A DNA stretch of 25,813 nucleotides, from the IMG/VR virus record IMGVR_UViG_3300012974_000005, positions 1-25,813 of that record. One strand, given 5' to 3'. The notes below the pieces were generated by a model. It worked only from the letters and a program-made list of their open reading frames with translations, searched no databases and was not told the origin of the DNA. Below are positions 1 to 25,813 of the stretch, piece after piece (within the stretch, counting starts at the first letter, position 1; each line of letters opens with the position of its first letter). Origin of the DNA: a virus. Position numbers and translations under genes: made by a program.

Positions 1-48
1 AAAGCAGAGCGAGAAGAAGTGTTTAGATTATTGAATATTGAAGAATAA
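1..48 (+). CDS. 3' end of the tail assembly chaperone gene (same sequence as 25691..25738)
   Basis: Translates KAEREEVFRLLNIEE then TAA, identical to the C-terminus of ORF 25250..25738. Confidence 0.8.
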   Translation, partial: KAEREEVFRLLNIEE

Positions 49-123
49 GGGGGATTTTAAATGAATTATAATGAACTCTTAAATAAAATATCTTCACAGA
101 TGTTGTCTGCGGCAGGCAAAGCC
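1..123. repeat. Terminal direct repeat copy 1, identical to 25691..25813; overlap from circular assembly
   Basis: Bases 1-123 (aaagcagagcgagaagaagt...gcggcaggcaaagcc) recur exactly at 25691-25813. The repeat lies inside coding sequence (chaperone 3' end plus start of the 56-aa ORF). Confidence 0.95.
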
Positions 124-231
124 AGTGGCTCCCGCACTACCAATGGCGCAGGATTGACATCAAAAGAAGATAATACCTCTATTATGTTAAATAGAATTGG
201 ACTTGAAGTTCAAAGACAAGGAGGATATTGA
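61..231 (+). CDS. 56-aa protein in the position normally held by the tape measure gene (between chaperone and Dit)
   Basis: ATG 61 sits 7 nt after aaggggg. Translation is MNYNELLNKISSQMLSAAGKASGSRTTNGAGLTSKEDNTSIMLNRIGLEVQRQGGY. The TGA stop overlaps the next ATG (TGATG). Function is inferred from synteny only. Confidence 0.55.
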   Translation: MNYNELLNKISSQMLSAAGKASGSRTTNGAGLTSKEDNTSIMLNRIGLEVQRQGGY

Positions 232-3200
232 TGCTAATTAATGGAATTGAATTAAGTAATTTGGGTGTTTAGTTATTTGACCGTGTATTACGTAGTAATT
301 TAATTGATACCGCACAAGAGTGGTTAGATGGCGACATTCAGCCTACTTTTATTCGCCAGCAAGACCGTTTCAAGACTATTGAATTACAGTTTTTAGTTTT
401 AAGTGCTGATGAAGATGAAGCATTTAGACGCATTAGTAAATTAACTGCTATGCTAAAAAAGGCTACTGTAAAATTTGATGACTTGGACCTTATTTTTGAC
501 GTTAGCATTATTAATGTGGGCGAACCCACTCGTTTGAAGAATGGAAACTTCGTTGTGCCTTATACATTATCCAGTGGATATGCGAAAGGTCAGCGTGAGA
601 TTTATACCACAAACGCTAATATGACTAACTCATTTAAATTGACTGTTGCGTATTATAAAAACTCAACAAATTTATTATCAAGTGAAACTGTTATAATTCG
701 TGCTTCTGCTTTCGATAAAGAAAATCTGGGACTTGCGGATTTGGGAATTGATGTAAATAAATATCAACCTCAATACCATAATACCGGAGTAGCAACTAAT
801 CTAAATGGATTAGACCTAACCTATGAAAACTTACAGAGTTTGAAAGTATTGATTATCAATTATGCGCCTATTTCTTATAATCTTACCGTCAATTATTATT
901 TAGATAATGGCGAAGGCTTATATAATGAAATCCTTAACCGCACTGTCTCCTTTACCCAGACGAGTTTGGAAAATTACCAAACCATCGGCCAGTTAGTCGG
1001 TGTAAAAGATTATCGTCCGGATGGATATAAAGGTAGGGTTTCTTATGACGGCGCTCTTACTGTGGAAGAGTTATTGGCTCACGCACCCATTGGAGTGTTC
1101 TACGATAAGATTGAAACCGAGTTAAGTAAGAATATTTTTATTGCGTATAAAGCAGAAAATGATAATGGAGAATTTGACACTATTCAATCTGTTATCATTA
1201 ATATTAGCGAGACCCAATTCTATGATGGCTTGACTTTGAAAGACATTATTAGTATTGATGGTTATAATCCAAATCCCAGTTATTATAATGCTGGTTATAT
1301 TGATGGGTTCGCTTCTAACACTCTAATCTCTTATGAGACAATGGAGACTGCTTATAGTGTCATTTATACCAAGGCAGTAAATACTGTTTATGTAGAGTAT
1401 TACGCAGGCGTTTATCCTGGTTGGTATAGATTATCTACTGCTACATTACAGACAAAGCATTTAGACAGATATGATGAAAGTTTCAATATTCTAACTGATT
1501 TAGGGTTAGATTTGAATAAGTATCATACTGCTCCTTATTACGATGGTGCTTTATATAATCAAGACATTTATCAGACTTATGATGACGTGCTAAATGCCGG
1601 TGTTCTACAAGTCTATTACAATGCTATTGATTATCCTATCACCGTCAATTATTACACCGGAGACCTAACCGCAACTCCTATTACTGAAATAGTAAATATC
1701 AATGCGTTAATGTTCTTCGGCAATCCAATCTTGAGCGACATTATTCCTATTCTGGCACATCGTCCAGAAGGCTATCAATTTAGTGAGAACTTCTCTTATA
1801 ATGGCGAAGTCAGTCTGGAGGCACTGACCCAGGCTTCTCCTATTATGATTGTCTATGAAGAAATTGAAGTAATGCGTTCAAAGAACATCATCGTCCGCTA
1901 TAAGCAAGAGTTATCATCCGCGTATGCTACAATCACAACTAATTTAATTACTGTTAATGAAGCAGATGTGATTGGCGGAGTCCGCCTGAAGGATGTTATT
2001 AGTTTGGATGCTTATCGTCCTGAATATTACGATAGTGGTATTATTGATGGCGCAAGTTCCACTGCTCTAATGACTTTTGACTCTCTTGGCTCATCTTATG
2101 ATGTATTGTATGTCGCAAAGACTTACACAACGCCAGTTCGCTATTATATTGACGAGATTGATGATTTACACTGGATTGGTAGTGCTTCAATTGCTTATAA
2201 GGTAATTGACTTTGAAACTACAACTACTCTATTCGACTTTGGCTTGAATTTGAATGCCTATAAGCCTTCTTATGCGGGCGACGGCGTTCTACAATATACT
2301 GGCCCAGTCAATTTTGCTGCTCTATTGGAATTACAGTCTATTGATATTCTATATCTAACAGAGACTACTCCTCCAGATGATGAAGAAATTGATTATCCAC
2401 ATCGTTTCTTATTCTTACAGCATAATGATTTAGGTGCTTACGAATATCTACATCCTGAATGGACTATGAACCACGCATTTATCAATACTGGTGTATCTGC
2501 CGAAGATATGTCTCGTTTGACTGTGGTTATGGAGTGTGCTCGTGTTGATGAGAATGTGCCAATGTATCAAGTAAATGCGGGATACGCTTATTTATTTGGT
2601 AGCACTGGCGGTCAAGGCACTTTCCATATGAGATATAACAACCAGACAATGTATGGTGAAAACTTGACTGGTGTTGATACTTACGAGGCCAAGGCTGGTA
2701 ATTACAGCAATTCTTTAGTGCTGACCGCAGAAAGCGCCGTAGGATTTAGTGAGAATACTGGTATTTATAGTTCTCCTCAAGAGGGTTATAGTCGTGCTAC
2801 TTTCACTTACAGCAACCTTTTGGCTACTGATGGTGCCCCGATGACTTACCCATTATATTTGTTCGCAAATAATAATTATGGTAGTTATTCTAACGGTATC
2901 GCAGGCGTAGGTATTTATAGTTGTCGTATTTATTATAACGACCAATTAGTCCGTGATTTTATTCCCGTTCAGTTCTATGATAAGATTGGTGATTTAGTCG
3001 CACCAAGCAACTGCTTATATGATAAGATTACCAAGACTTTCTTCGAAGACGGCTCTGGTTAGAACAGTTTCAATATCAGAGACGATGAGCGTTATGAAGA
3101 TGACAACTTACAACATCAAATCGGTCATTGCTATGTAAATTACTACAAGGGCACTGATTTTATGAAGACCATCGCTATTTATTTCCGTGGAGATGAATTC

Positions 3201-6200
3201 GATGATGGCGAATTTGATTTATATGAGCGTTTCGCAGTTGATGAAAATCAACCTCAATATACTTTCTCTGGTGAAATTAAGCACGTTGAAAATATTGTTG
3301 TATCTTTCAATGGCTTAAATAATAAGACCTTTGATGTCTATTATGAGCCAATTGAAACTCAGATTGTCGCCAACTATTATAAGGTTGAAGACAATGGTAA
3401 TAAGACTTTATTAGCAAGTGAAACAATCGCACTGAAAGAGAAAGACTTCTATCAGGTTCCTACTTTTGGCGATTTAGTTCGTCTAAATAAATATAAGCCT
3501 GATGGATATGAAACTAATTTCAAATATACTGGTAGCAAGGTATCTTTGGCTCGTGTTGTTGAGGGTTCTCCATACAACATTGAATATACAAAGATGACCG
3601 AAGATAAAATTCCATATTCTACTACTATTAGATATATTAAAAAAGTCTATGGTGTCCGTGAATATGAAACTATCGGCACTAAAGTATTGACATTAGACCA
3701 GAGCGATTTCCGCGATGGTGAATATATTGATTGGTATATTGATAAGAATCTGATGAAACCTGACAGATTCTATAAAGATGGCACAACTTATCAATGGTAT
3801 GAGATGGATGAGCGTCTAAACAAGCCAGAAGACTTGAAAGAGTCTTACACTATTATGTATGCTCCTGAACGTCAGTATTTAGACGTTAATTATTATACTG
3901 ATGAAGTAGATGAAGAAAACTACATCGCAGGTATGACTTGGAGTCTGGCAATTGATGAGTTAGACCCTCGCTTAACTTATAGTATCGTTGATATCTTCCC
4001 CAATGAATATATCAATAAGTTCAAACCCGTTATTTGTGCGGGCGGTGAATTACAAAACGCAACTACTCAATATACATTTGAAAGCCTGGTTGATTTCGGC
4101 CACGTTGATATTGTATATGAAACTATTGAAGAGCCTAATGACCCAACTGAAGCATATTACGAAAGAAAAGTTTTAGGTTTCGGTCATTTCAGCCAAAGTA
4201 TTCCTGCCGGTGAAGGCGGCTTAGATAGTGATGGAATTATGAACGGAGGAACCATCCCTTATATTGACCTTGGCTACACTCCAAAAGAGTTGAAGCGTTT
4301 AAAGGTTGAAATCAAGGCAGTCGGTCAGAGCGCTGGCTTCCTCGCAAAGAATGGTATTGTAAATGGTGGTTTCCAGGATACTTCTTATTCCAACTTCTTT
4401 GGTTATGTAGTCCCTCGTGATTATCGTCTATTGGGAACTATGCTCCAAGATTTGCCAGACGCCGATGAAATCGTATTAGATGATTTTTATTCTGTAAAGA
4501 TTAGCGACCAGCAAAAGGGACACTTCGCTGTGCGTCCTCGTGTGGCTATCGCTTCTGGATTTGTATATTCTGCTGAAGGCCCACAGTCTCTTGACGGACA
4601 ATTATGGTATTCTGCTTCGGCTGCGGCTGGTGTAATTCCAGGCCAACCCCGAGAATTATATACTGGATATAATTATAAATTCCGTAATGGTTATGCGACC
4701 ATTTTGGATGAAAACTATGAAGAAATTGACTGCTTCCGTGAATATGGCGGTTCTTATGAAACTCGCTATAAAAAAGATGGTTCTACATCTTTGGTAAATT
4801 GGGTCGTGAATAATGAGCGTGTCTCTGGTATTGGTGAAAATTATCTGCCTTTGGCTAATCCAACTACTATTATTATGGATGCTTATAATCATTACCTATT
4901 AACCTATACCGAGGAAGACAGCAATAACGCAATGGCTACTTACTTTGAAGATGTTGATAATGATATCTTTGAAGCACGATTACAGCCACGAGGCTCTCTA
5001 ACTTTATTCCGCACTCGTAATCCATTAGACGGCAATATTAATATTATGCCTATCAATCATATTACCTGTGCTTCTACAAGTGATACAGGCAAACTGTCTT
5101 TAGATGGAAAAACTAATCCATATTTAGGCTCCGCAGGTTCTGTCGAAGTAGAAGTATTGGTTCAGGTTGGTATTGATGCCAATGGCGCACCTATCTTCCA
5201 GACTCAAAAGAAGCAATTGAATATTAAATATGTTGATTTTGAAGTCCCCGTATTTACTTCTCTTGAGGCTTGTGCTATTTGGGGAGTAAAGATTTGGGAT
5301 AGAGGTCGCCTGGTTCGTGATTTGATTCCTGTCGCAGAAGGCGATAAGGTTTATGATTATACTATGCCTGCGAATGGTTTGTTTGACCTGATTACTGAAA
5401 TCTTCTTTGGTAATTCTAATGAGGGTGGCGAGTATAAGCAAGAAGGCTACTTTACCGTGAAAGAAGGACATCTACAGCAAGATGTTAAGACTGTAAAAAT
5501 CTTACCAGAAGAGGTAAAGCCTTTGTGGGTTATTTTAGACCCAGGTTATTATGGTAAAATGACGATGAATTATTATGATTACGATTATAGTTTTATCAAT
5601 AGTCAGTTTATCAATGTCCCAACCTGGTATAGTAAGAGCAATACCACTAAGGCAGAAATCTTAGGTTATAATGACTATAAACCTGATGACTTCCATTTAG
5701 ATGGACTTTTGGATTTAGGCGATGGCGCTGACAGTCCAATTGATGATTTGACTTTATATGAAATCTGGCAGATGAACTCTGCTAATGTTTTTTATAAATT
5801 GAGAACATTTACAAAGACTGTTGTTTATTATCAAGGCAACTATCGTGTAGGTTCAAAAGATATTTTCTACTCTTTGGCAGATATTGAAAATGCTCTAACA
5901 ATGGATGATTTAGGCATTGATGTTGATTTGTATTGGACCGAAGACTTCGCTCACGGACGCATTGTGTTTGATGAGAGTATCATTGCTTCTTCTAATATTC
6001 AGAACTTCATTGACGCACCCTCTCCAATTGTTGTATATGACAAGTTGAGCCAAGAGGAAGCACCTAACCTGTTCTATGTTGAATATTACAGAGGCGGTGC
6101 GAGCGACGACACTCTAATTACATTAGACCCTGATAATCCTAATTATTTAGACTGTGAATTAGATGGCGTTGTATTGAATCCTAATGGTGCGATTAAATAT

Positions 6201-9026
6201 TATAATCACTATCACTCTGCCCTATATGAGGATGAAAAGTTTGATTACTTCATTCCTTACCAGGTAAAAGTGTTAGACCGCTACACTGGTATTCATCGTG
6301 GTCCCGCACGTAGATTCCCAACTCTCGCATTGATTGTTGATAAAGATATTTACACAATCATTGAAGAGCGTAATGGTTGGGGTCGTTTGAAAGAATACCC
6401 TGTCGGTTGGATTATGTTATCTGCGACCGAGCCTATGACTGGCCCAGGACAGAATCCTGATTATGACGCGCCCGGCACAGAGGATACTGCTACACTACCT
6501 TTTGGAAGTGAAGTTCATATCAGTAAATTAACTATTGATAGATTGTGGTGTTATGTGCCAGAAGTAGAAAGTTGGATTAAGGCAGAAGATGTTTCTTATA
6601 ATCAGTCAGGTAAGTTATATAACGCACTTGATATTGATGTAATTCATCTTGATGAATTAGACTTCTCTACTATTACTTCTCTTGATGGAGTAGGTATCTA
6701 CCCACAAAAGAGATTATTATATTTCCACGACCGCGAAGACTATGTATATGACGGCGAATATACTTATGATGCGTTCTCCGCACTTCACGAATTAGAATTC
6801 GTATATCCTGAAACCATTTATAGTTATAATTGTATTTATTACAAAGATAACCTGGGCGAATGGTGGGAAGGCGAAGTAATTACCGAAGGCTCTGCCAATG
6901 GTATTGGAAGTAGTAGCAGTGATTGTGGTCGTATTTATGAACGCCCATCCACAAATAGCACTCGTCTTGAATACTTTATGAAAAATCATACGGGTTCGCT
7001 GATTAGTGCGAAGTTTAATAGTGGTGGATATGAATGGTATAAAATCCGTTATGTATATTCTTCTACTAAGACTTATGAAGGCTATATTAGAGCAGACCAA
7101 TTAACTAATATTGTTGAGCCTGAAACCAATGGCGTATATCACAATAATGAGTTAGGTCGTGCGTCCTTCACTTGTTCTCTTGGAGATTGGAACCCTGACT
7201 GGGATGTTTTCATTGCGTCCTCTTGGCGGGTTGATGAAAATGGTAGGGAAATTAACCCTGACCTATATCGTGATACTGAATTGACTTTGACTTGGGATTA
7301 TTTCGGATTTGAACGTAATTTATTTAAACCCGAGGGTTATTATGATGGTATCTACCTATGGAACCCACGCACTTGGGGCCGTGGAGATGTCAATTTCACA
7401 TTCCGTGAATTAATCCGCGTCGGCACTCAATATGTATTATATCCAACCATCCCAATTGATATGTATAAGATTTTCAATAAGACAAATACAATTACTTTAT
7501 CAAGTGGTATTGACCGCTTCCAGTTAAATAATATCGCTTATCCAGAAGACACTACTCCAAGTGATTTTTACGATATAAATATTGTATTTGACCCTTATAA
7601 AGCAAGTAATTATAATATTGGTGGAGAAATGGTTTATACTCCAGACGCCGGCTATTCCCCCGTCATTATGAGAAATGGATTACAATATTATCCTTCAAGA
7701 GGCGTCGGCGGTAGTGTTGGCGGTGTCATTACTCACTGGTCTATGACTTATACCAGCGGTAATCATCATACTACTTACAGTTGGAAAGATGTATTAACTA
7801 CTTCTAAATATTTGAAGAGTTTAGTATATCAAGAGCCAGGTGATTATTTCACTTTCAATCTATCCAACAAGCGTAAAGGCAATTCTTATGTGTTTGGTAA
7901 GGGTAATTATTTATCTGGTTTAGCCGATGAGTTTTACCTGGCTGATGGCACGAAAGTAATTGATAGCACTAATTTAGAAGGTAATTACGCATTTACTGCG
8001 TTTGACGACCATTACACTGAAACCAAAGGTGGTAAAGGTTGGAGTGGTGGAGCAGAATATCAACACACAACGGTTGTAAGCAGTAATTTTGCTCCTATTT
8101 CAGTTTATTCCAATGCCCTGGGCTCCGCGATGAGTATCGCTACCTATGAGAACTTCTTATTACAGAGATACTGGGTGCCTGTCCCAAAGGGCTTCTGGTA
8201 TAAATGGAATGGAGAGGATTTACGTATCCCTGAAAATGGATGGTTTGACTTGATGACAGGCCACTTTACTAAGTCTCCAGACAGTAAGATTTATTTGTAT
8301 AAACAAACTAACGGAGAAGACATTGGATATGATTATTTTGATAATTGGTTCTATAATACCAGTGAAATTGATTATATCGTTCAAGTGCCCGCAGAAACTG
8401 CGACTTATGAAGAGCCTGATGCTTACGCATTAGGTATCCGTTCCCTTGCTCCTGGATTAGTATTCCCTGTTTCTAAATTGACTGCTGATATTGATAACCG
8501 AGTAATTGGTGAATGGTATTTCAGTTGCGACCAGTGGCTACAATCTTCCAAGGCTTCTATTCACGCCGGCACATTTGATAGAACTAAATTAACTAAATTA
8601 CAACAGTCTTTCTGCTTGGTAAAGCCTGCGGATAAGAATGAAAAGTATTATGTTTATTTAGACCCATCTGCGGTTGCCACAGTTGGTGAAGCCAGTCAGG
8701 CTGTATATGGTTCTGCCTATGAAGATATCGCATTCTATAATTACGTTGATACGAATGGTAATAAGTTCTATTTTGATGGCGCCTATTGGGTCCCTGAAAA
8801 ATACACTTCTTTCAATACTACTGAATGGAATAAGAACTATGCTGTCATCCCTGATAATTTACCATTCTATTCTTTACCTATTGAAGATAATGCTTATGTA
8901 GCAGGTAATTACCATTACGGCGAACGTATTACTGTTCCTTATGTAGCAACTCAAGACTCTGGATGGGGCTATACCGGCATTGGCTGGATTAGAATTAATA
9001 CAGGAACTGTAAGTGAGATTTTGTAA
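231..9026 (+). CDS. Giant (2,931 aa) distal-tail-protein (Dit)-like adhesin, read through TAG 270-272 and TAG 3060-3062
   Basis: ATG 231 (RBS aaggagga 218-225), ORF 450..3062 and ORF 3162..9026 share one frame. The only interruptions are two TAGs. The repeat module ...GHCYVNYYKGTDF starts upstream of the ATG at 3162, so a 3162 start would truncate a domain. The N-terminus MLINGIELSNLGV(TAG)LFDRV...KATVKFDDLDLIFDV fits the Dit/Sipho_tail N-domain pattern. It is followed by at least 14 modules of about 82 aa (xVxYY...KYKPDGY), three jelly-roll-like modules ending LVRDxIPV...LxDxIT..FF, and SH3b-like segments. It ends TAA TAA. Confidence 0.8.
630..2365 (+). repeat. Seven tandem ~82-aa domain repeats with a 3-module super-period (A-B-C-A-B-C-A) inside the giant protein
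   Basis: B modules: ISYNLTVNYYLDNGEG...DYRPDGYKGRVSYDG versus DYPITVNYYTGDL...AHRPEGYQFSENFSYNG. C modules: KNIFIAYKAENDNG...LKDIISIDGYNPNPSYYNAGYIDG versus KNIIVRYKQELSS...LKDVISLDAYRPEYYDSGIIDG. A modules: LGIDVNKYQPQYHNTG, LGLDLNKYHTAPYYDG, FGLNLNAYKPSYAGDG. Confidence 0.8.
3100..4135 (+). repeat. Second array of four related ~85-aa modules inside the giant protein
   Basis: The motifs recur: CYVNYYKGTDF; IVANYYKVEDNGNK...KYKPDGYETNFKYTG; TTIRYIKKVYG...MKPDRFYKDG; YLDVNYYTDEVDEE...KFKPVICAGG. Boundaries are approximate. Confidence 0.65.
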
Positions 9027-9044: not shown

Positions 9045-9401
9045 ATGGATAATACTCAATATTACCCAATCGTGTTTGATGGTGAGGGCAAAAGTTTCGT
9101 TGTTATCAACAACGGAACTGCCCCTGCTCCTTGTATCCTAACAATTATCCCAAAGGTTGATTTCTTAAAACTGGTGGTGGAGGGTCTCACCGAGACCCCC
9201 ATCACTTTCACTGGACTAAAAGCAAATCAGGCCTTGGTAATTGATGGAGAGAACCGAGAAGTATCTGTTGATGGAGTGAGTGCTTTCGCATCTTATGATG
9301 CCTGGGAGTTTCCTCGCTTACTACCTGGAACAAATCAAATTATGATTGAAAATGGCACTTCTGCTTCAATTTCAATTGAATACAGTGCTAATTATATCTA
9401 A
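9045..9401 (+). CDS. Dit C-terminal (galectin-like) domain encoded as a separate 118-aa protein
   Basis: RBS aaaggag. FVVINNGTAPAPCILTIIP...ALVIDGENREVSVDG...FPRLLPGTNQIMIENG...ISIEYSANYI matches the C-terminal pattern of siphophage tail (Dit) family proteins (f.v.N.Gt.p.P.i.i...l.iD....v...g.n...f..L.pG.N.i). Assigned from memory of the family. Confidence 0.6.
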   Translation: MDNTQYYPIVFDGEGKSFVVINNGTAPAPCILTIIPKVDFLKLVVEGLTETPITFTGLKANQALVIDGENREVSVDGVSAFASYDAWEFPRLLPGTNQIMIENGTSASISIEYSANYI

Positions 9402-9415: not shown

Positions 9416-10444
9416 ATGATTAAGATTTATGATAGTAATCATAACTTTTTAAAATTGTTGCCTTCTTGTAGAAATATTTATACAACGGAAATGTTAAGCA
9501 CGGGGTTAAAAACCCTGTGCTTCCAAGTTCCTTGTAAAGATGAGTTCTTTGAAATTATCCAAGAGGAGAATTATGTGGAAACCGCAGACTACTCTTACGT
9601 TATAAAAGAACTCATTTTAGAAGACAACGATTTTATGGAAGTTCGTTGCTCTGCGAATATAGAACAATTAACCGGGCGTGTCTTCCAAGTGTTTGACTGC
9701 TTACAGATGAATTTAGAGCAAGCCTACGAGTATTGTTTATCCAAGAGTGATTGGAAATTGGACTATCAAAGCGAAGACCGCAGTATAGCAACTTATCAAT
9801 TACCTTACACTACTGGATATGAAATGATAAAGTAGATTGCTACAGATTACGGGCAGGAATTGTGGTTTGATACCAAGCATAAAGTTTTGCGCGTATATGA
9901 TTCAATGGGTGCCGAGTTTGGTGCTTATTTCTCTAATGAGTTGAATTTGAAGCGCTTAACAAAATAGTCTTCTACTTATGATTATGCTACCGTTATTTTA
10001 CCTCTTGGTAAAAATGGTCTGACTATTACCAATGTTAATGGTGGCAAAGATTATTTAGAAGATTATACTTATACAAATAAGACAATTGAAAAGTATTTTA
10101 TTGATGAAGATATTGATGTTGCTGAAATCTTGAAAATGAAAGCAGAGGAATATTTAGCCAATGCTTGCGTGCCGAGAGCCAGTTATAAACTTCAATTAGC
10201 AAGCCTGGGTGATGGTGTAGGCCTGGGTGATGTTATTTATCTTGTTGATAAAATCAAACGAATTAAGTAGAAGCAAAGAGTCGTAAAGATTGTGCGCTAT
10301 CTACGAGAACCTGAACGCAGTAGCGTAGAAATCTCTAATTTACAGATTGACTTCGCTCGCACATTTATTGAGGGTTAGAAAGAAGTAAAAAAAGAAATTG
10401 CTTATTTGAGAAAGTTATATAAAGAATTGGCTGACGCAGAATAA
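9416..10444 (+). CDS. Tail-associated lysin/tip protein (Tal) N-terminal-type protein, 342 aa, four in-frame TAGs
   Basis: RBS ggagg. MIKIYDSNHNFLKLLP...LKTLCFQVP...YSYVIKE fits the phage minor structural protein N-terminal / Prophage_tail pattern. The frame continues through TAG 9833, 9965, 10268 and 10376 (...ELWFDTKHKVLRVYD..., ...ATVILPLGKNGLTI...) to TAA 10442-10444. Confidence 0.75.
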
Positions 10445-10470
10445 CCGTTCGTCAGGACAAAATTGTTCCA

Positions 10471-10498: not shown

Positions 10499-10539
10499 GA
10501 GGGCAAAATTTCTTTATTATGTGTATTATGGATTATCAT

Positions 10540-10953: not shown

Positions 10954-10954
10954 T

Positions 10955-14422: not shown

Positions 14423-15664
14423 ATGAAGATAAGGGTTCATACGAATATCTTCTGTCCGGTATATCTACCGCACTTGAACCCTGACGGCCACCGCATCTTA
14501 GTGTTTTATGGTGGTGCGGGTTCAGGCAAAAGTTTCTTCGTAGCCCAACGTCTGGTGTATAAAGCCCTGCGTTCCCGCAGAAAAATACTGGTTTTGCGTA
14601 AGGTCAATAGAACTACAAAGGCTTCTACATTCCAACTGCTCCTGGATACACTGGACCAGTTCGGCATTAGAGACCGATGTAGCATCAACCGCACGGACTT
14701 CACAATCACTCTGCCTAATGGCTCAATGTTTTTATGTATGGGTCTTGATGACCCAGAGAAGATTAAATCTATTACTGGTCTCACTGATGCGTGGCTGGAA
14801 GAAGCGACTGAATTTACTCTTGATGATTTTAGCCAGGTCAATCTTCGTATTAGAGACCCGCACGCAGAGGATTAGGAAGTTATTTTATCATTCAACCCAG
14901 TCTCAAAGGCGAATTGGTGTTATTTACAGTTCTTTGCCGAGAACTCAGAGTTGGATGAGTTTCGTAAAACAGTAAAGATAGTCCATACAAATTATCTGGA
15001 TAACCCATTCCTTCCCGCAGAGTATGTGTAGGCATTGTTATTGATGAAAGCAACTAATGAAGTCTATTACAAAATCTATGCTCTTGGAGAGTTCGGTAGT
15101 CTGGATAAATTGGTTTATAATAATTGGCAAAAAATGGATTTTGACCCAATGACTATTAAAGGTCAGTTGTTGTGTGGCCTTGACTTCGGTTATACGAACG
15201 ACCCAACGAGGTTCGTCGCATCTACATTAGTAGAAGCAGAAAGACGTATTTATGTCTTTAGGGAATGGGGCGGAACTGGTTTTCTAAACGACCAAATCGC
15301 AGACCAAATCAAAGCGCTGGGATTTTCTAAAAGTATAATTATGGCTGATAGTGCCGAATAGAAGAGTATAGAAGAGATTAAGCGTAAAGGAATTGCTCGT
15401 ATCAAACCTTGTGTAAAAGGTCAGGGCAGTGTCCTGTAGGGCATACAAAAACTTCAACAGTATGAAATCATCGTTCATCCATCTTGTGAGGGTGTAATTG
15501 AAGAACTTCAAAACTACTCTTGGAAGAAAGATAAGGCGACCAATGAATACATCAATGAACCTATTGATGATTTTAACCATAGCCTTGATGCTCTTCGCTA
15601 TTCATTACAATGTATGGACGCACGAGCACAGTTAGCGTCTATGAATAAAGATTTATTGTTCTAA
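14423..15664 (+). CDS. terL: Terminase large subunit (PBSX/Terminase_3-like), 413 aa, four in-frame TAGs
   Basis: Walker A is VFYGGAGSGKSF and Walker B is DAWLEEATEF. The nuclease half is GLDFGYTNDP...ADSAE(TAG)KSIEEIKRKG...GSVL(TAG)GIQKLQ...DDFNHSLDALRY. Track ORFs 14423..14875 and 15035..15361 plus the remainder share one frame. Breaks are TAG at 14873, 15029, 15359 and 15437. Stop is TAA 15662-15664. Confidence 0.9.
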
Positions 15665-15683: not shown

Positions 15684-17051
15684 TTGTTTAGTTTAAATAA
15701 TATTGAAGAATTAACAGATAGAGTAATTCGCAGAATTGTAGAGAACCATCGTAGTTCAGTGCTTCCTCGCTTACAGAACTTGGAGAACTACTACAACGCG
15801 AAGAATGTTATTAATAACAGAATTATGAAAGATAAATCTAAACCTAATAACAAAATCGCAAATGCTTATGCGAGTTATATTACTGATACTTTGGTTGGCT
15901 ATTTTATTGGCGAACCCATTTCTTATACCTCAAATGACGACGTCCTTTTGTAGGATTTAAGTATGATTTTTGAATATAATGACGAGGCTGATGAGAACGC
16001 TGAATTAGCAAAGAATGCTTCTATTTATGGCGTGGCTTATGAGATGTTATATTTGAGCGAAGAGGATAAGATGATTAGATTTAAGGCTCTTAATCCGAAA
16101 GAGATTATCCCTATTTTTGATAAGACTGTGGAGCAGAACCTGATGGCAATCATTCGCTACTACGATGATTATGATGTAGTTGATGATAAGACTTATACAT
16201 TAGTAGAGATTATTGATAACACGATGGTCCGCAGATATAAGATGGATAATTCTTTCTTGCTTCTGGAAGAATACCCTCATTACTTTGGTATGGTGCCTAT
16301 TGCTATTTATAAGAACAATGAGGAAGAGCGAGGCGACTTTGAGGCGGTTATTAGCCTGATTGATGCGTATGATAAGATGGAGTCTGATACTCTAAATGAT
16401 TTTGAATACTTTGTTGATGCTTACTTGGCTTTGTATGGCTTTACCGCAGAACCAGAAGATGTAGCACAGATGAAGGAAAATCGTATCCTACTTATGGATG
16501 AAGGCACCAGTGCTGAATGGCTTATTAAGCAGACCAGCGATACTTATGTTGAGAATATGAAGAACAGATTAGATGCTGATATTCATAAGTTCGCCAAATG
16601 TCCTAATATGGCTGATAAGGAGTTTGCTTCTAATGCTTCTGGCGTGGCTATCAAGTTCAAATTGTTGGGAACAGAAAATCTGGTCTCTATCAAGGAGCGT
16701 AAGTTCAAGCGTGGCTTACAGCAGAGACTGGAACTGATGAGTATGATTAATAGTGTTCTACGCGAAGGTTTTGATTGGCGTGGCATTGATATTATCTTTA
16801 CTCGTAATGTCCCATCCAATGATACTGATATTGCCAATATGGTAAATACTCTACGAGACATCGTTAGTGAAGAAACATTACTGGCTCAAATCCCATTTGT
16901 TGAGGACGTTCAAGATGAGTTAGAGCGTTTGAAGAAAGAACGAGAAGAAAATAAAGAATTAAACCCATTCTTCCAAACAGGATTGTCTTATCAGACAGAG
17001 GCTATGGCTAACGGCACAGAGCAAAAAGATAAAGAGGAGGACGAAGAATAA
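15684..17051 (+). CDS. Portal protein (SPP1 gp6-like), 455 aa, TTG start, one in-frame TAG at 15951-15953
   Basis: RBS aaaggagg. RLQNLENYYNAKNVINNR...KPNNKIANAYASYITDTLVGYFIGEPISY fits the SPP1 gp6 portal pattern. ORF 15684..15953 and ORF 15963..17051 are in the same frame. Confidence 0.85.
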
Positions 17052-17440
17052 TGGAGTTAGAATTATTATTCCAAATTTTTGAGTTGTGTATTATCCCTTT
17101 ATTAGCAGTGCTGACTGGTTATTTAGTTCAGTGGATTAAAGCAAAGACCGCAGAGGCTACTGAAAAGAACCAGCAGGATGTGTTTGATAAATACATCACT
17201 ATGCTGGGTGAAACAATCGCAAAGTGCGTTTCCGCAACTAATCAAACCTATGTTGATGCGCTGAAGAAGGCTGGTTCATTTGATGCCGAGGCCCAGAAGC
17301 ACGCATTTGAAATGACATTGAATGCGGTTATGAATGTTTTAGGTAAGGATGCTATTGAATATCTAACTGCTATTTATGGCGACCTAACCAGTTATTTAAC
17401 TACATTAATTGAGGCCGAGGTAAAGGCACAGAAGGAGTAA
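17051..17440 (+). CDS. Membrane-anchored protein, LL-H-type holin-like (129 aa)
   Basis: A single N-terminal hydrophobic helix (FQIFELCIIPLLAVLTGYLVQWIKAK) is followed by an Ala/Lys/Glu-rich soluble part. This resembles the Holin_LLH family. The position between portal and minor head gene is not a canonical lysis locus. Confidence 0.4.
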   Translation: MELELLFQIFELCIIPLLAVLTGYLVQWIKAKTAEATEKNQQDVFDKYITMLGETIAKCVSATNQTYVDALKKAGSFDAEAQKHAFEMTLNAVMNVLGKDAIEYLTAIYGDLTSYLTTLIEAEVKAQKE

Positions 17441-17441: not shown

Positions 17442-18350
17442 ATGAGTATCACAACAGTTCCAGTAGTTCCGCATTTCAATCGCTATGTAAAGCCGACTGT
17501 TGAATTAGTCCTTCGACTATTGGCAGAAGCCTATGAAGACCAACATAAATTGGATAAGATACTAAAAGAGATTAGCGATGAAGTATTTGCGGAACTGGCA
17601 AAAGAAATCCAAAAGTTGGCTGATGATGGTAAAATTAATCTTGATGCCAAGATTGATTTATATAATAATCCCGCACTTTATACCGCGTTGAAGCGGATTG
17701 AGGCGAAGCAATTGTAGAAATTTACCGAGTATTGCTGGATAGGAGCATAGGTAATAGGGGAGAGTTTGGTGCGGGCTTATTCTACAACTCTCGCTGAAAC
17801 TTATCAAATGTTTAACTACACAAAGGGGCTTGACCCACATAACCTCTCTTCTGGACCAAAGTCGTATAATGTGTATGTTTAGACAACTGACACCTACATT
17901 CGGGAGAAGGTGCTGAATGTGCCTTGGTGCCAGGATGGTAAGATTTATAGTGATAGACTTTGGGGACACGTGGCTCAATTCCAATAGAAATTGAGTTATG
18001 TTTTAGAAGAGGGGATTGGAAAAGGTAGAGGTATGGAGTGGATGATGGAGGCGTGGCAGAAGTTGGCTGGTGGAACGGCATACAACACTGCCCGCCTGCT
18101 AAAAACAGAGACAATGGCGATGTGGTCTCGTGCGACCAAAGACGCCTACCTCGAAATGGGAATTGAATATGTTGCTATTGTAGGCGACGCAGAATGTGGA
18201 GGCATTTGTTTGGATTATGTTGATGGCGAACCAATCCTTTTAGTAGAGGCGGAGATTGGGGACCTACTCCCTCCTTATCATCCAAACTGTGCTTGTAGTT
18301 TTGTGGCCTGGGAAGAAACAGTTGAAGTCCCATTGGGCGAAGACGTATAA
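17442..18350 (+). CDS. Head morphogenesis / minor capsid protein (SPP1 gp7, Phage_Mu_F family), four in-frame TAGs
   Basis: NVPWCQDGKIYSDRLWGH, ARLLKTETMAMWSRATKDAY and the signature PPYHPNCACSF are present. ORF 17442..17717 and ORF 17991..18350 are in the same frame, joined through TAG 17715, 17748, 17880 and 17985. Confidence 0.85.
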
Positions 18351-18431
18351 ATTCATCGCCACTATTCTTAATAATATTTAGAAGGCTACAACTCCGTGAG
18401 GGGTAGCAAATTAATTGGAGGTTTTATTTTT

Positions 18432-19022
18432 ATGGCTGAAATTGTTAATGATAAGGGTTCTGTTGTTGAGACTTCAACTGTCGGTATTGAGACAGGGGAA
18501 GTTGTTGTTGAGAAAACTTATACTGAAAGCGAAGTCCAAGCATTACTACAACGCGAAGGCGACCGTAGAGTATCAAGCGCTCTTAAGAAGCAACAGAAAG
18601 AGTTCGAAAGACAGACTGCGGAGGCTGACAAGTTGAGAGATATGGACGAAAGTCAGCGTAAGGAGTATGAATATACTCAAAGACTCCAAGAGTTGGAAAA
18701 CAAAGAACGCGAGTTCGCTATCGCCCAGAATAAGTTAGAGGCGACAAAAGTTATGGCGAACAGAGAACTCCCTATTGAGTTCGTTGATTATATTGTAGCA
18801 GAAGACGCAGAGACAATGATGGAAAATATCACTACATTTGAACGAGCATTTAAGAGTGCTGTGGCTGATGCCGTAGCAAAGAAGATTGCGTCTCCCGCAC
18901 CAAAGACTGGGTCCGCAAAGCAGACTGGTATGACAAAAGAAGAGTTTAGAAAGTTATCTGTGGCACAGCAGACTGAAATCTTCCGCAGTAATCCAGAACT
19001 GTATAAGCAGATGACCCGATAA
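18432..19022 (+). CDS. Capsid scaffolding protein (DUF4355-like)
   Basis: RBS ggagg upstream of ATG 18432. The protein is charged and helical: TESEVQALLQREGDRRVSSALKKQQKEFE...ELENKEREFA. It lies immediately upstream of the major capsid gene. Confidence 0.75.
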   Translation: MAEIVNDKGSVVETSTVGIETGEVVVEKTYTESEVQALLQREGDRRVSSALKKQQKEFERQTAEADKLRDMDESQRKEYEYTQRLQELENKEREFAIAQNKLEATKVMANRELPIEFVDYIVAEDAETMMENITTFERAFKSAVADAVAKKIASPAPKTGSAKQTGMTKEEFRKLSVAQQTEIFRSNPELYKQMTR

Positions 19023-19049: not shown

Positions 19050-19826
19050 ATGGCACATTTGATTTATGAAAACGAGATTTTGAGTAATAAACTGACTGAC
19101 ATTTTGACTACTCAAATTGATATGAACGCCTATATGACCGTTGATACTTCTATGACCGAGCAGGCTGGTATGAAGAAGGTTATCAACACTTACGTTGCTA
19201 CTGGCGATGTTGAAGAGTTGGCAATGGGTGAAGGCAATGAGACTGAAATCAGCGTAAGTTTCACTTCTGCTGAATACGATGTCCTAACTTACCAGGGCTA
19301 CTTCCATTACTACGACGAGCAGGCTATGACTGACCCTATGGTTGTTGATGCTGGCCTTGATGGTTCCGCAAAGACTATGGTTAATAAGTTCGTAGCAAAG
19401 GCTATTGAAGAGTTCGAGAAGGCTACTTTAGAGGCTCCTGCCGCTGCTTGGAGTTTTGAGGCTGTTGTTGATGCTATCGCAAAGATGAACCTGGAGGCAG
19501 AAGAGGGCTTGTTCCTGTTGATTTCTCCTAACGACCAGGCTGCTTTCCGTAAGGCATTGAAGGATGACTTGAAGTATAGCGAAGGCTTCGTTCGCACTGG
19601 CTACATCGGCACTGTTTGTGGCGTGCCTGTCATCGTATCCAAGGCTGTCCCTGCTAACAAGGGCTATTTGGCTACCAAAGAGGCTGTTAGCGTATTCATC
19701 AAGAAGGATACTGAAGTAGAGCAGGACCGCGACCCTGATACCCGTGATAACAAGTTCTGGGTTCGTAAGGTTGCTGTTGTTGCTTTGACTGACGCTACCA
19801 AGGCTGTTAAGATTAATATCGGCTAA
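19050..19826 (+). CDS. Major capsid protein (HK97 fold, small ~258-aa type)
   Basis: Strong RBS aaaggag, position after the scaffold gene, codon usage richer in G/C, and a strong terminator downstream. The sequence pattern resembles N4-gp56-type capsid proteins of Firmicutes phages (from memory). Confidence 0.8.
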   Translation: MAHLIYENEILSNKLTDILTTQIDMNAYMTVDTSMTEQAGMKKVINTYVATGDVEELAMGEGNETEISVSFTSAEYDVLTYQGYFHYYDEQAMTDPMVVDAGLDGSAKTMVNKFVAKAIEEFEKATLEAPAAAWSFEAVVDAIAKMNLEAEEGLFLLISPNDQAAFRKALKDDLKYSEGFVRTGYIGTVCGVPVIVSKAVPANKGYLATKEAVSVFIKKDTEVEQDRDPDTRDNKFWVRKVAVVALTDATKAVKINIG

Positions 19827-20516: not shown

Positions 20517-20838
20517 TTATAATGCTGAAACCCAGACTATTTCTATGATTGCGAAAGATACCGGAGATTTCGTAGTTGCTATTGATAATTATTTACTTGC
20601 CGAAGGCGATAAGGTGTTCTTTACTGTGAATGACGCACTTGAAAAAGAGACCGCACTTATCTCTATCGTCGTAAGCGAGTTTGTTGATAATAAAGCAATA
20701 ATTCGCTTGTCTGCGACCGATACTAATTTGGCTCCTGGTAATTATTACTATGACGTTCAGGTAAATACAGCCGATGGCCGTGTTGATACTGTATTAGGTC
20801 CAGCCAAGTTCAAAATCGCAGGAGGAGTGAAGTTCTAA
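20509..20838 (+). CDS. Small beta-sandwich (Ig-like) virion protein, function unknown
   Basis: ATG 20509 lies after ggagg. DKVFFTV...[22 protein letters not shown]...GPAKFKI is the strand pattern typical of phage Ig-like decoration or fibre-base domains. Confidence 0.45.
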
Positions 20839-21785
20839 TGAGTATTGAAGTTTTAAATAAAATGACAGCAGTGCCCGAAGAAACCCCTGTGATTAATGTG
20901 GCTCTTACCAATCCAACTTATCGTGGCCCCAAAGGAGATAAGGGTGATAAAGGCGATAAGGGAGATATTGGTCCTATTGGATTGACTGGTGCTACTGGCC
21001 CACAGGGCATCCAAGGTATTCCTGGCGAGCCTGGCCCGATTGGCCCACAAGGCATTCCTGGTAAAGTTGGACCATAGGGTCCAAAGGGAGATAAAGGAGA
21101 CCAAGGTGAAGTCGGTCCCCAAGGCCCTATCGGACCACGGGGAGAGCCGGGTCCAGAGGGCCCCGCAGGCGAAGGTGCTGATATTGTAAAATTAACAAAT
21201 ACTGATGTCCCTACCCAAGAGCAATGGGAAAAAATGGTAGCGAATTATAATGCTGAGGCTTTAGTCTATCCAATGACAGTAAATGATTAGCCAGTATTGT
21301 CTTTATATGTATCTGGTTCATTGTCATTAGGGGGCACATTAGTATTATTTACTACATCTCCCGCATTCGATTATAATAATTCTATGGACTATTATTTTAA
21401 TTTGACTGACTATTGGTTCCCAATGTCATCAGGCAAGGGACCACAAAAATGCTCTTCCTCTGGCGCAGCCTTTTTAGAAGCCGGAACAATTTCATTAAAG
21501 GGATATAAAACACCCGGCTCAAAAAAGAATATTTATGATGCGTTAAATTATTTAGACACCAACAAAATTGGTAGCGATGCGTTAGTTGCTTCTGGTATGA
21601 GTTATGATAATACTGAAACACAGATAGAAGCAACCACAGTCCAAGATGCGATAGACCATTTATTTGAGACTGCGATTGATGCGACTTATTTAGAAAACTT
21701 GGGCTATCAAACCGAAGCACAGGTTAATGCGTTGATTACTACTGCTCTTGGTAATATTGGCGTAGCCGAGGAAGGAGCGTATTAA
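20838..21785 (+). CDS. Collagen-like-repeat fibre protein (315 aa), two in-frame TAGs
   Basis: There are 28 uninterrupted G-X-Y triplets (20925..21176), including G-P-(TAG) at 21075-21077. ORF 20838..21077 and ORF 21297..21785 share one frame. The second TAG is at 21288-21290. Confidence 0.85.
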
Positions 21786-23173: not shown

Positions 23174-23713
23174 ATGGGCTTATATTGTAAAATAAATCTT
23201 GAAAGCGATTGGGGTCTCCCCAATCGCACTCCTGAATTAGGATTACCTATTGATTATACAGAAGCCATTGGGGTTTTTTCAGATACTTTTATGAGACTTA
23301 GTTAGGAAATGGTGCCAGTAGATACTGGTTTTTTAAAAAGTTCTTTAAGAAGTTTCGGAGACGGAATGACAATAGAAGCAGAAGCAACGGCAGATTATGC
23401 TTAGTATGTGGAGTATGGAACTTGGTGTTGTCCTGCTTAGCCATATTTTAATCCAGCAGTTGAATCTGCCAGTGATGCTGCTTTTGGAGTAGCAAAGCAA
23501 ATATATGATAGAGCGATAGCACAAGAGGCTGAAATGGTGAAGCAACAATTTATCGCTGAGGCTTAGAGTAGAGTTGCTGCCGCAGGCCGAGCAATGGGTG
23601 CTGACGCACTTATCGGTGGCATATTCCCTATGCTTGCTATGATGATTATTGGTAGTATTATGACCTTATTCAACGAATTTTTTTCAAGTATTTTTGGTGA
23701 TAATGACGAATAA
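23174..23713 (+). CDS. HK97 gp10-family tail-completion protein with a hydrophobic C-terminal extension, four in-frame TAGs
   Basis: It is missed by the ORF track because of TAG at 23303, 23402, 23438 and 23564. The translation contains MVPVDTGFLKSSL...ADYA(TAG)YVEYGT...PA(TAG)PYFNPA, the gp10-family core. The C-terminus is ALIGGIFPMLAMMIIGSIMTLFNEFF. Confidence 0.7.
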
Positions 23714-23730
23714 TAAGGAGGACTGATTAA

Positions 23731-24237
23731 ATGGCTACGGTAACTATTGACGGTGTAGAAGTTGTTATATCTGGTGGAAAAGCAAAATTATCGGCTCGAA
23801 GTTGGCAGGCAGCCAACTCAAGTATGTGGAGACCAGGTTCGGCTCAAGCAAACTATGCTTCATCATATAGCGCGAAAGCAAACCGTGTAATTCAATCTCT
23901 TAACTCTACTGGTAGTTATGTAAATTCAAAAGGTATGAGAACTTATATAAATAGAGGAAATGATATACTAAAACACGGTAGCATAATTAGACAGCAAGCA
24001 GACCGAGGAACTGAGGCCTGGGCAGTATAGCAGCGTATTGCGAGTATGGGAGGATTAGAACCTTAGCCCACAGGCGCCAGTATGGCAGATGTGATAGGAG
24101 AGATGGTTGAAGATATGATGGCGGAAGTCGAAAATATTGGAGATGATATCGCGCAAAAAGCACAAGCATACTTCGATAAAGTTTCTGACATAACTTCAAA
24201 CATCGGACAATCAATAGTAGATATATTCACTGATTAA
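23731..24237 (+). CDS. Hypothetical virion-module protein (168 aa), two in-frame TAGs
   Basis: RBS aaggagg. ORF 23731..24030 continues in frame through TAG 24028 and TAG 24064 to TAA 24235-24237. The acidic helical C-terminus is MADVIGEMVEDMMAEVENIGDDIAQKA. Confidence 0.6.
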
Positions 24238-24456: not shown

Positions 24457-24872
24457 TGTTATATAAATTAAAGACTCAGTTTTATTCTCTACTAAAGGAG
24501 TTAGGTTATAATATAACCGACAGCGCTGAATATAAAGAAAATTTTCCCTGGTTGATGCTAAGAACGGATGGCTATACAGCATTTAGAAGTTTTAACACTA
24601 ATATTTCAAATATCACACTAACACTTGATATTTTTTCAACTTATTGCGGAGAAAAAGAAATTATTGAAATCGCTGACGATATTGAATCACACTTAAGTGA
24701 AATGCGCCAAGACAATCCAGAGGTATTATATTGCTATCAAAAAACTATGAAAATTTTAGATGATAAATCCACTGGACCCGTGAGAAAGCACGGCATTATA
24801 ACTTATGAATTTTTAATGGGTTATGGCGTTGGATTTGATGAGGAGGTGCCTGACGATGGAACCGAGAACTAA
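24453..24872 (+). CDS. Tail terminator / tail completion-like protein (139 aa)
   Basis: Position immediately upstream of the tail tube gene, with ATGATG coupling. ENFPWLMLR...ITLTLDIFS resembles DUF3168-type tail terminator proteins (weak). Confidence 0.45.
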   Translation: MMLYKLKTQFYSLLKELGYNITDSAEYKENFPWLMLRTDGYTAFRSFNTNISNITLTLDIFSTYCGEKEIIEIADDIESHLSEMRQDNPEVLYCYQKTMKILDDKSTGPVRKHGIITYEFLMGYGVGFDEEVPDDGTEN

Positions 24873-25248
24873 CCTTGGCCGCAGCGTTGATATTACTCTT
24901 TATATTGATGGCTTACCTCTTGGAGGCCAGTAGAGCGCGAATCTATCTCGTCAATCCAGACTAATTGACATTACAAATAAAATTAATTCTGAATGGGAAG
25001 AAGTCCTTGGAGGAACAAAGAGTTGGTCGGTCGTGTGCTCTGGTGTATATGTAATAAATGACGAAGCCCTTGCTCTTTTGGAGGATGCGTTTATGAATAA
25101 TAAATTAATAACGGTTTCTTTAAATACAGGGTTTCAACGTTTATAGGGCCAGGCTTTAATTACTGATTTTCCTTTGAGCGCAGTGTTCGACAAAGAGTTT
25201 AAATATACTCTGAACCTCTTGGGGTCAGGTCCATTAGAAAGGGTGTAA
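24856..25248 (+). CDS. Major tail (tube) protein, 130 aa, two in-frame TAGs
   Basis: It is absent from the ORF track because of TAG 24931 and TAG 25144. RBS gaggagg. The translation LGGQ(TAG)SANLSRQSRLIDITNKINSEWEEVLGGTKSWSVVCSGVY...L(TAG)GQALITDFPLS...LLGSGPL fits the siphophage tail tube pattern (GGq.s..l.....id.T.K....w.e...g.ksws....G). Confidence 0.75.
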
Positions 25249-25249
25249 A

Positions 25250-25738
25250 ATGTTTTTACGAACCAATCGCAAAATCTATGAGTTCAAAATTGGTCTCAAA
25301 GGGTTAATTATGATGCGAGAAAACGCAGATTTAGTGATGGCAAATGATAAGAGATTTCTCTTATATTGCGGATTGGTTAGTAAGCAACCAGCAATTACAT
25401 TTCAAGAAATTGATGAAATCATAGAGGAATGCGACCTATCGAAATTTGACATCAATCAAGACATCCTTTCTATCTATGAAGTTGAGGAGTTATATACGAA
25501 AGCCGTAGGCGAAATCGGTATAACTCCTACCGACTTCTATACGATGACGCCTCACGAAATTGACCTTGCTTATGAGGGATATTTAAGAAGAAAAGAGACT
25601 GAGGCGAACTTAACTAAAATGGCTATTATTACAAGCCAAGATAATGAATTAATACGTTTGACCGAAGATAAAGGTTATTTCGTAGGAAGTAAAGCAGAGC
25701 GAGAAGAAGTGTTTAGATTATTGAATATTGAAGAATAA
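25250..25738 (+). CDS. Tail assembly chaperone (Gp15/TAC-like), 162 aa
   Basis: It lies directly after the tube gene. GITPTDFYTMTPHEIDLAYEGYLRRKE is the motif I associate with the Gp15 / gpT-like chaperone family. Confidence 0.6.
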   Translation: MFLRTNRKIYEFKIGLKGLIMMRENADLVMANDKRFLLYCGLVSKQPAITFQEIDEIIEECDLSKFDINQDILSIYEVEELYTKAVGEIGITPTDFYTMTPHEIDLAYEGYLRRKETEANLTKMAIITSQDNELIRLTEDKGYFVGSKAEREEVFRLLNIEE

Positions 25739-25813
25739 GGGGGATTTTAAATGAATTATAATGAACTCTTAAATAAAATATCTTCACAGATGTTGTCTGC
25801 GGCAGGCAAAGCC
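25691..25813. repeat. Terminal direct repeat copy 2, identical to 1..123
   Basis: Exact 123-nt identity with the window start. Confidence 0.95.
25751..25813 (+). CDS. 5' part of the 56-aa ORF (same sequence as 61..123), truncated by the window end
   Basis: Identical to 61..123 because of the terminal overlap. Confidence 0.55.
   Translation, partial: MNYNELLNKISSQMLSAAGKA

Follow-up and report, generated by a model that had tools for sequence, protein, structure and literature searches.

Suppressor tRNAs were detected in only 40% of the TAG-recoded phage genomes in the main survey of such phages, and genes for release factors or aminoacyl-tRNA synthetases were found to be rare among them (Borges et al., bioRxiv 10.1101/2021.08.26.457843). 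Recoding with no suppressor detected in the phage is therefore already known, is an acknowledged question for ~60% of the surveyed genomes, and is discussed there with the same possible explanations that are weighed below. The IMG/VR virus record IMGVR_UViG_3300012974_000005, a stretch of 25,813 nt that is here called the window and taken at its full length, is an unusually clean case: it holds a phage genome unit of 25,690 bp, with a terminal overlap of 123 bp, in which essential genes contain in-frame TAG codons and no gene for a UAG decoder was found. A sequence-only reading of the window had started from the view that TAG-recoded phages usually carry a suppressor tRNA (tRNA-Sup), often with release factor 2 (RF2) or a synthetase. 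The survey figures contradict that premise and, as suppressors were detected in only 40% of such genomes, make the window one more case of a question already recognised as open, rather than a departure from a rule.

The closest described systems differ from the window mainly in size and content. Like the window, the crAss-like, Lak, Jade and Agate phages reassign TAG (or TGA) in late genes, in standard-code hosts, but they do so from genomes of 100-560 kb that have a tRNA-Sup, often RF2, release factor 1 (RF1) or a synthetase, and theta ribozymes; of the code-change module of the crAss, Lak and Jade phages, no tRNA(CUA), RF2/RF1 or synthetase was found in the window. A tRNA-centred view of recoding is stated in the theta-ribozyme paper. 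Suppressor-free recoding has since been described in an Egyptian crAss-like phage and a Suoliviridae phage, with the same three explanations offered (bioRxiv 10.64898/2026.08.21.746148). In these, as in the window, amber is reassigned and a tRNA(CUA) was not detected, but their genomes, of ~100 kb, encode other tRNAs and leave much of their sequence uncharacterised, whereas the window unit is of 25.7 kb with no tRNA. In a large genome a tRNA might escape detection; a 25.7-kb genome that is ~97% coding gives it no such room, and for a genome so small, dense and tRNA-free the case for a hidden decoder is far weaker.

Nearest in size is the Topaz clade, of 22±3 kb, which has mixed codes, a Firmicutes (Oscillospiraceae) host and a TAG-free integrase, and one member of which is a 23.7-kb TAG-recoded prophage within a standard-code Oscillospiraceae contig; TAG-free integrases are reported for the Garnet phages as well (Borges et al., bioRxiv 10.1101/2021.08.26.457843). 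The clade to which the window belongs resembles Topaz in genome size (23-27 kb, the window lying at the upper edge of 22±3 with 25.69 kb), in a structural and lysis block in which TAG is read as Gln, in mixed codes, and in the TAG-free integrases of three relatives of the window (loci L046, L063 and L064). The window itself differs in having no integrase, and in having a Rep-like gene and repeats. Set beside Topaz by published description, it probably belongs to that clade or to a sister group.

The recoding is apparent from coding density. Under the standard code, 79% of the window lies in open reading frames (ORFs) of at least 100 aa; the figure is 98% when TAG is read through, and 92% when TGA is. 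The 31 genes end in TAA (25) or TGA (6), never in TAG, and 27 in-frame TAG codons are distributed over 11 of them (35%), including TerL, portal, tail tube, Tal and a giant protein:

231 to 9026, plus strand: giant protein of 2,931 aa, in the tape-measure position; TAG at 270-272 (codon 14) and 3060-3062
9416 to 10444, plus strand: Tal (Prophage_tail; PF06605, 8.5e-33); TAG at 9833, 9965, 10268 and 10376
11879 to 12466, plus strand: NUMOD4/HNH endonuclease (Pfam); one TAG, at 12179
13812 to 14186, plus strand: TerS (PF03592, 1e-17); one TAG, at 14022
14423 to 15664, plus strand: TerL (PF04466, 1e-57; PF17288, 2e-30); TAG at 14873, 15029, 15359 and 15437
15684 to 17051, plus strand: SPP1-type portal (PF05133, 2e-114); one TAG, at 15951
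17442 to 18350, plus strand: minor head protein; TAG at 17715, 17748, 17880 and 17985
20838 to 21785, plus strand: collagen-repeat tail/fibre protein; TAG at 21075 and 21288
23174 to 24237, plus strand: gp10-like protein (TAG at 23303, 23402, 23438 and 23564) and 168-aa protein (TAG at 24028 and 24064)
24856 to 25248, plus strand: tail tube protein (PF06199, 1e-15); TAG at 24931 and 25144

Pfam domains continue across these codons: Terminase_3 and Terminase_3C in TerL (four TAG), SPP1_portal over residues 19-425 (one TAG), and likewise Prophage_tail, Phage_tail_2 and Terminase_2, the Prophage_tail match covering three of the four TAG in Tal. The rise in coding density and the domains running over TAG agree with the sequence-only reading that this is a 25.7-kb recoded phage with TAG in essential genes. 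In an alignment of TerL, Q predominates among the relatives at three of the four TAG columns, and the fourth (column 206) varies between K, E and D. Over 215 TAG columns drawn from all orthologue families, enrichment is strongest for Q (4.5-fold), followed by E and K, and Y and W are depleted (0.4x and 0.6x); of 28 codon differences that involve TAG between near-identical variants, 23 are exchanges between TAG and CAG or CAA. The recoding of the window is real and, as judged from these Q-rich columns and codon swaps, its TAG means Gln (genetic code 15). The share of TAG among Gln codons is 10% in the window and 26-33% in the relatives L033, L034 and L005. The base 3' of in-frame TAG is distributed as it is after CAA and CAG, unlike the T-rich context of true stops, so there is no special readthrough context, and an explanation by such a context was rejected.

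No decoder was found in the genome. ARAGORN returned no tRNA gene from either strand, with the window taken as linear or circular, and with intron and mitochondrial models and thresholds down to 50% it gave chance-level calls only. At a noise threshold it reported 125 'genes', of which two, at 6456-6533 and 9802-9886, had the anticodon CTA, about the number expected by chance; neither folds better than shuffled sequence, and both were discarded. Rfam gave nothing at the gathering score in the window, and no match to tRNA, tmRNA or ribozyme at E<=10; the latter negative extends to the theta (hepatitis delta virus-like) ribozyme in so far as Rfam 15 contains a theta model, which is uncertain. 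A separate pattern search looked for a perfect 5-bp anticodon stem enclosing a YU-CUA-RN loop, and for a consensus T-arm, which had no match on the plus strand. The stem-loop search found a single instance in the genome, against 0.58 expected by chance:

14661 to 14677, minus strand: 5-bp stem with YU-CUA-RN loop, antisense within TerL

This was rejected as a tRNA, having no cloverleaf and a fold z of -0.36, and being uncalled by ARAGORN even at the 50% threshold. A supE-type tRNA(CUA) spiked into the window was detected, as was a real tRNA(CUA) in an unrelated phage contig, so the search tools work. None of the window proteins has a Pfam or PHROG match to a release factor or an aminoacyl-tRNA synthetase. 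On both counts, the missing tRNA(CUA) and the missing release factor and synthetase, the sequence-only reading is borne out by ARAGORN, Rfam and pattern searches over both strands of the circular unit and by the Pfam and PHROG scans.

The non-coding DNA offers little in its place. The six intervals that the sequence-only reading had listed, at about 900 nt, sum to 869 nt, and these are accounted for by promoters, terminators, a leader and repeats, including a terminator 3' of the capsid gene and the following elements:

10540 to 10568, plus strand: early promoter TTGATT-17-TGnTATAAT, within the 10445-10608 spacer
11576 to 11665, plus strand: very stable hairpin with T-run, a terminator or attenuator (terminator scan; -42.6 kcal/mol, z=-7.3)
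12463 to 12491, plus strand: consensus sigma-70 promoter with extended -10 (12/12 match)
12492 to 12660, plus strand: structured leader of ~165 nt upstream of the Rep-like gene, with a terminator-like hairpin at its end (fold z=-3.8)
13420 to 13621, no strand assigned: repeat-rich spacer, with a 14-nt tandem repeat TAATAGTATTATCT in ~2.4 copies and the repeated TTAATTACCC

The hairpin at 11576-11665 holds, in its 27-nt loop, the CTCTAAA whose surroundings the earlier reading had judged wrong in geometry for a tRNA; folding agrees, showing a long terminator-like hairpin and nothing tRNA-like. These 90 nt, lying between early ORFs, contain four GC-rich segments for which alternative pairings are possible, which gives them an attenuator-like look. 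The promoter and leader region (12463-12696) is also found in the standard-code relative L002, and is therefore not specific to recoding; it is poorly conserved in the recoded L001, and could represent either a leader that controls replication or a small RNA. Both elements were rejected as decoder RNAs, the one as terminator-like and the other as a promoter and leader shared with L002. A similar arrangement of promoter, leader and terminator precedes the helix-turn-helix (HTH) gene of L033 (~11240-11470). The spacer at 13420-13621 is, from its sequence, probably an ori or pac region; its repeats, just 3' of the Rep-like gene, resemble iterons, so that the phage may replicate in a plasmid-like way.

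The same picture extends to the relatives of the window. These were collected by TerL, Tal and portal searches of IMG/VR and of Joint Genome Institute (JGI) metagenomes, together with exact-protein look-ups, and comprise ~100 related loci (1.18 Mb in total), of which ~38 are TAG-recoded and many are standard-code; contigs with close homologues are of 23-28 kb. No tRNA was found across the ~100 loci, no Rfam match in nine recoded relatives, and no RNA-like element common specifically to the recoded ones. Three relatives are instead TGA-recoded, Trp being the residue that aligns with TGA in their portals, and these too are without tRNA:

L050, 3479 to 4819: portal match, TGA-recoded relative
L054, 10001 to 11311: portal match, TGA-recoded relative
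L086, 8446 to 9252: portal match, TGA-recoded relative

One ~25-kb phage clade spans genetic codes 11, 15 and 4. Its standard-code members end genes with TAG as a true stop, and in the TerL tree recoded genomes are interspersed among standard-code ones. When 253 proteins from 17 loci were clustered all against all, no gene family proved to be both universal among the recoded genomes and missing from those with the standard code, and a shared code-switch gene was rejected on this ground.

In some relatives the recoding is nearly complete. TAG is found in 16 of 20 genes of L033, 15 of 19 genes of L034, and every gene of L046 but the integrase and one small gene, so that 80-90% of genes carry it in these heavily recoded genomes; TAG outnumbers CAG in L033, L034 and L005. 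The TAG-free set of L033 and L034 consists only of a 64-aa HTH protein, the scaffold, the major capsid protein (MCP) and one to two small ORFs, their small winged-helix regulators carrying TAG. The Rep-like gene of the L005/L045 genome, a putative counterpart of that of the window by position and with no blastp link to it, has two TAG. As regulators and a Rep-like gene themselves contain TAG (L033, L034, L046, L045), there can be no switch protein made before TAG decoding. Single proteins of the relatives hold up to 16 TAG (in a 2,981-aa protein), and 11 in a TerL. The non-structural region is variable and of only 1.3-3.3 kb across the clade; in L033 (11022-12324) and L034 (4537-6029) it is of ~1.3 kb, with three small HTH or winged HTH ORFs, and no recognisable replication initiator or integrase was found in the 20 of 24 kb examined.

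Tyrosine integrases, by which some of the relatives are recognised as temperate, occur in standard-code loci (L003/L024 and L004) as well as in recoded ones (L046, L063 and L064). In the latter three, none of the 13, 10 and 10 Gln codons of the integrase is TAG (0/33), while TAG makes up 19-31% of Gln codons elsewhere in the same genomes (product of chance probabilities ~4e-5). This suggests that the decoder is absent in some cell states. The integrase of L046 lies on the opposite strand, at 17788-18726 (minus), within the structural module, and the integrase-homologous ORFs of L063 and L064 are on the plus strand.

Pointers to the host are indirect. A GGAGG-type Shine-Dalgarno site stands ahead of nearly every window gene, a usage that fits a Bacillota-type host and not Bacteroidota, and the nearest homologues of the holin-like protein in cultured phages (tblastn) belong to phages infecting Roseburia, Faecalibacterium and Anaeroplasmataceae. 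Together these point to an anaerobic gut or rumen member of the Bacillota. The nearest cultured phages by TerL and portal, at 42-48% identity, are those of Clostridium and Bacillus, and the names of related contigs lead to buffalo or ruminant gut assemblies. Phage and plasmid collections gave no nucleotide match to the window, and the NCBI match is a metagenome contig.

Taken together, these observations support the conclusion that the UAG decoder is not encoded in the window genome and is supplied in trans, as essential genes hold TAG and no decoder accompanies them. The sequence-only reading had proposed such a trans-acting decoder, and the tRNA-free clade extends its case. In the mechanism proposed here, the phage would bring only recoded genes, and UAG would be read as Gln by a decoder from elsewhere: most likely a suppressor tRNA-Gln(CUA) that some host cells, or cells in some states, would contain. 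Its gene might lie on the host chromosome, on a resident prophage or plasmid, or on another recoded phage sharing the cell, and it would be charged via the normal Gln pathway of the host. Both the tRNA nature of the decoder and its origin are inferred; a suppressor tRNA-Gln(CUA) made from DNA outside the phage genome is given about an even chance. A cognate tRNA is favoured because proteins with 11-16 TAG demand near-complete decoding at each codon, and it is the only route to such efficiency known to us. It also fits the clean Gln signal and the easy gain and loss of recoding, and the interleaving of codes on the TerL tree, together with the tRNA-free TGA-to-Trp relatives, fits lineages that track whatever the cell offers. 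Phages with a tRNA(CUA) exist: the unrelated contig L116 (IMGVR_UViG_3300021256_001812) has one at 1810-1885 (minus strand), in an array of nine tRNAs. This contig comes from a tRNA-like pattern scan of IMG/VR, among the unordered matches listed, and is anecdotal, its sample of origin being unverified.

Several observations weigh against a suppressor tRNA supplied from outside. Searches of genomes, proteins and nucleotide collections found no host or donor element, and two large protein searches, with TerL and portal, returned no homologue on a contig longer than 32 kb. The sole match in a scan of GTDB genomes was L022 (JBNMKQ010000023.1), a 22-kb contig in an Alloprevotella metagenome-assembled genome (MAG) bin, with a TerL 52% identical to that of the window; this is probably a distant whole phage genome binned with the MAG and not host evidence, the bin being discounted because the strong Shine-Dalgarno usage of the phage misfits it. 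The TAG-free integrases could be recent imports from standard-code phages, as those of the recoded relatives differ in type and position. Absence of TAG from the early genes of the window is not significant (p=0.7), and the idea that these genes avoid TAG was dropped. Dependence on another element at each infection seems risky for a phage so abundant, with >100 portal variants in the protein search. Finally, no natural host among the Bacillota is known to us in which a resident amber suppressor has been documented to serve such phages.

A decoding without any dedicated suppressor, in which RF1 is either absent, the host being an RF1-less member of the Bacillota, or disabled by the phage, and tRNA-Gln reads UAG, is unlikely. 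One form of it, with a small chance, is that a phage factor, expressed early or borne in the virion, disables RF1, whereupon ordinary tRNA-Gln reads UAG through a near-cognate G36·U1 pair; in sister lineages RF2 would be disabled and tRNA-Trp would read UGA. TAG to Gln and TGA to Trp, the two reassignments of the clade, are the expected near-cognate outcomes, the true stops of the window (TAA and TGA) could be served by RF2 alone, and six TAG-free early ORFs of the window have no assigned function. In RF1-deficient E. coli, near-cognate tRNAs read UAG with no suppressor needed, Gln being prominent (PMC4333366; PMC6207430) among insertions that also include Y, K and W (PMC4333366). That system differs in being engineered, and what it inserts is a mixture (Q, Y, K, W), at low efficiency; loss of RF1 in the host of the window is hypothetical. 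Near-cognate reading is slow and mixed, which sits badly with the depletion of Y and W at TAG columns and with proteins whose 11-16 TAG need very high efficiency at each codon. Nor is any candidate gene common to the recoded genomes, and the early and regulatory genes of L033, L034, L046 and L045 carry TAG themselves, as does the giant gene of the window at codon 14.

There is a slim chance that the host natively reads UAG as Gln, being an unrecognised RF1-less lineage of the Bacillota whose code the phage shares. Phages of Mycoplasmatota (code 4) and Absconditabacteria (code 25) live in this way, needing no suppressor and carrying the reassigned codon in most genes; the mostly recoded L033, L034 and L046 resemble them, and the tRNA-free TGA-to-Trp members of the clade mirror the phages of known code-4 hosts. 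Genomes with TAG in 80-90% of genes and more TAG than CAG, a clade free of any tRNA, and the sense-codon context of TAG would all be expected. The window does not share this pattern, with TAG in only 35% of its genes, and close relatives use TAG as a true stop. The MCP is without TAG in the window, L005, L033 and L034, the scaffold likewise except in L005, and the integrases of recoded relatives are TAG-free. We know of no bacterium in which UAG means Gln. The survey of Borges et al. predicts standard-code Firmicutes hosts for such phages, and its Topaz prophage lies in a standard-code Oscillospiraceae contig.

Obligate co-infection, in which the tRNA-Sup of a larger recoded helper phage would decode the genes, has a slimmer chance. 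Suppressor-bearing phages such as L116 are present in IMG/VR, Borges et al. propose that recoding may sense co-infecting phages of the same code, and the clade has a minimal set of non-structural genes. No link to a helper was found, though, and genes for packaging, capsid, tail and holin are present in the phage itself; chance co-infection could hardly sustain the high prevalence and diversity that it shows. A non-canonical decoder RNA within the phage genome (an armless, split or permuted tRNA), of the kind that Borges et al. raise for recoded phages generally and for which the structured elements at 11576-11665 and 12492-12660 could be proposed, is very improbable, as ARAGORN at noise thresholds and with intron and mitochondrial models gave only chance-level calls that do not fold, Rfam was empty at E<=10, the two elements resemble a terminator and a leader respectively, the leader being shared with a standard-code relative, and the sole anticodon-like stem-loop is at chance level. 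Of the three sources that the sequence-only reading had entertained, a hidden RNA, with the non-coding DNA accounted for and no RNA-like element specific to the recoded relatives, is now the least likely.

The remaining features of the window are those of a complete siphophage genome that forms one circular unit. Its ends are defined by a repeat:

1 to 123: terminal direct repeat, an exact 123-bp match to 25691-25813

This repeat marks where the assembly of a 25,690-bp genome, either circular or circularly permuted, overlaps itself. From three or more further samples the genome came out as a ~25.7-kb circle, contigs of 25,831 bp (k141) and 25,720 bp represent it in other samples, and one JGI sample holds a fragment. 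Samples containing it are SRR7549217, SRR6059975, ERZ27246330 and JGI 3300012979. The GC content is 38%, and every gene is on the plus strand. Read around the circle, the order is tail tube, chaperone, giant protein, Dit and Tal; then a 3.3-kb early region with three unassigned ORFs, the HTH gene, the HNH endonuclease, the Rep-like gene and a 62-aa ORF; then TerS, TerL, portal, holin-like protein, minor head protein, scaffold and MCP, followed by connectors and tail genes. Structural and lysis genes form a single block, with the holin-like gene inside it. The Pfam scan of the window proteins found no integrase, and neither a conventional tape-measure protein nor an endolysin was recognised anywhere in the genome. 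Beside the genes listed above, the following were assigned or delimited:

9045 to 9401, plus strand: Dit, upstream of Tal
10609 to 11576, plus strand: three early ORFs (114, 139 and 66 aa), TAG-free, with no Pfam, PHROG or PDB match
11687 to 11875, plus strand: HTH regulator of 62 aa, TAG-free, kept in standard-code and recoded relatives
12697 to 13419, plus strand: Rep or winged-helix-like protein of 240 aa (weak match), TAG-free in the window
17051 to 17440, plus strand: holin-like protein (phrog_13712, 1e-30), TAG-free in the window
18432 to 19022, plus strand: scaffold, TAG-free in the window
19050 to 19826, plus strand: MCP, TAG-free in the window

The three early ORFs occur only in the closest variants of the window, and not in other recoded relatives. 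The holin-like gene, TAG-free here, has four TAG in L005; in L041 (1652-2341), whose portal is 94% identical to that of the window, its place directly 3' of the portal is taken by an N6/N4 DNA methyltransferase gene. Scaffold and MCP are both TAG-free in the heavily recoded L033 and L034, and in L005 the MCP is TAG-free and the scaffold has two TAG.

The giant gene occupies one third of the genome and is kept in all relatives, and its product has no Pfam, PHROG or PDB match. The sequence-only reading had divided it into separate ORFs at 450-3062 and 3162-9026; it is better taken as a single gene, since a Shine-Dalgarno site is present before ATG231 only and the public gene call likewise gives 2,931 aa. 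It is depleted in TAG relative to the rest of the genome (two TAG against 82 CAA/CAG; Fisher p=0.004), and the protein is rich in repeated '..V.YY..' segments.

To the acknowledged question of suppressor-free recoding, the window and its relatives add the absence of tRNA across a whole clade, three codes within that clade, the lack of a recoding-specific gene, and relatives recoded in essentially everything but the integrase. The clade is a natural comparison set, with three codes, no tRNA and some members nearly fully recoded, and it confines the answer to something that the cell already contains. Were RF1 absent or disabled, the finding would mean that bacteria have a further genetic code, new to science, or that recoding can be achieved by protein alone, and interference with RF1 and RF2 would explain why only TAG to Gln and TGA to Trp occur. 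If the decoder is conditional, recoding would tie the lytic growth of these phages to the state of the host or to other mobile elements.

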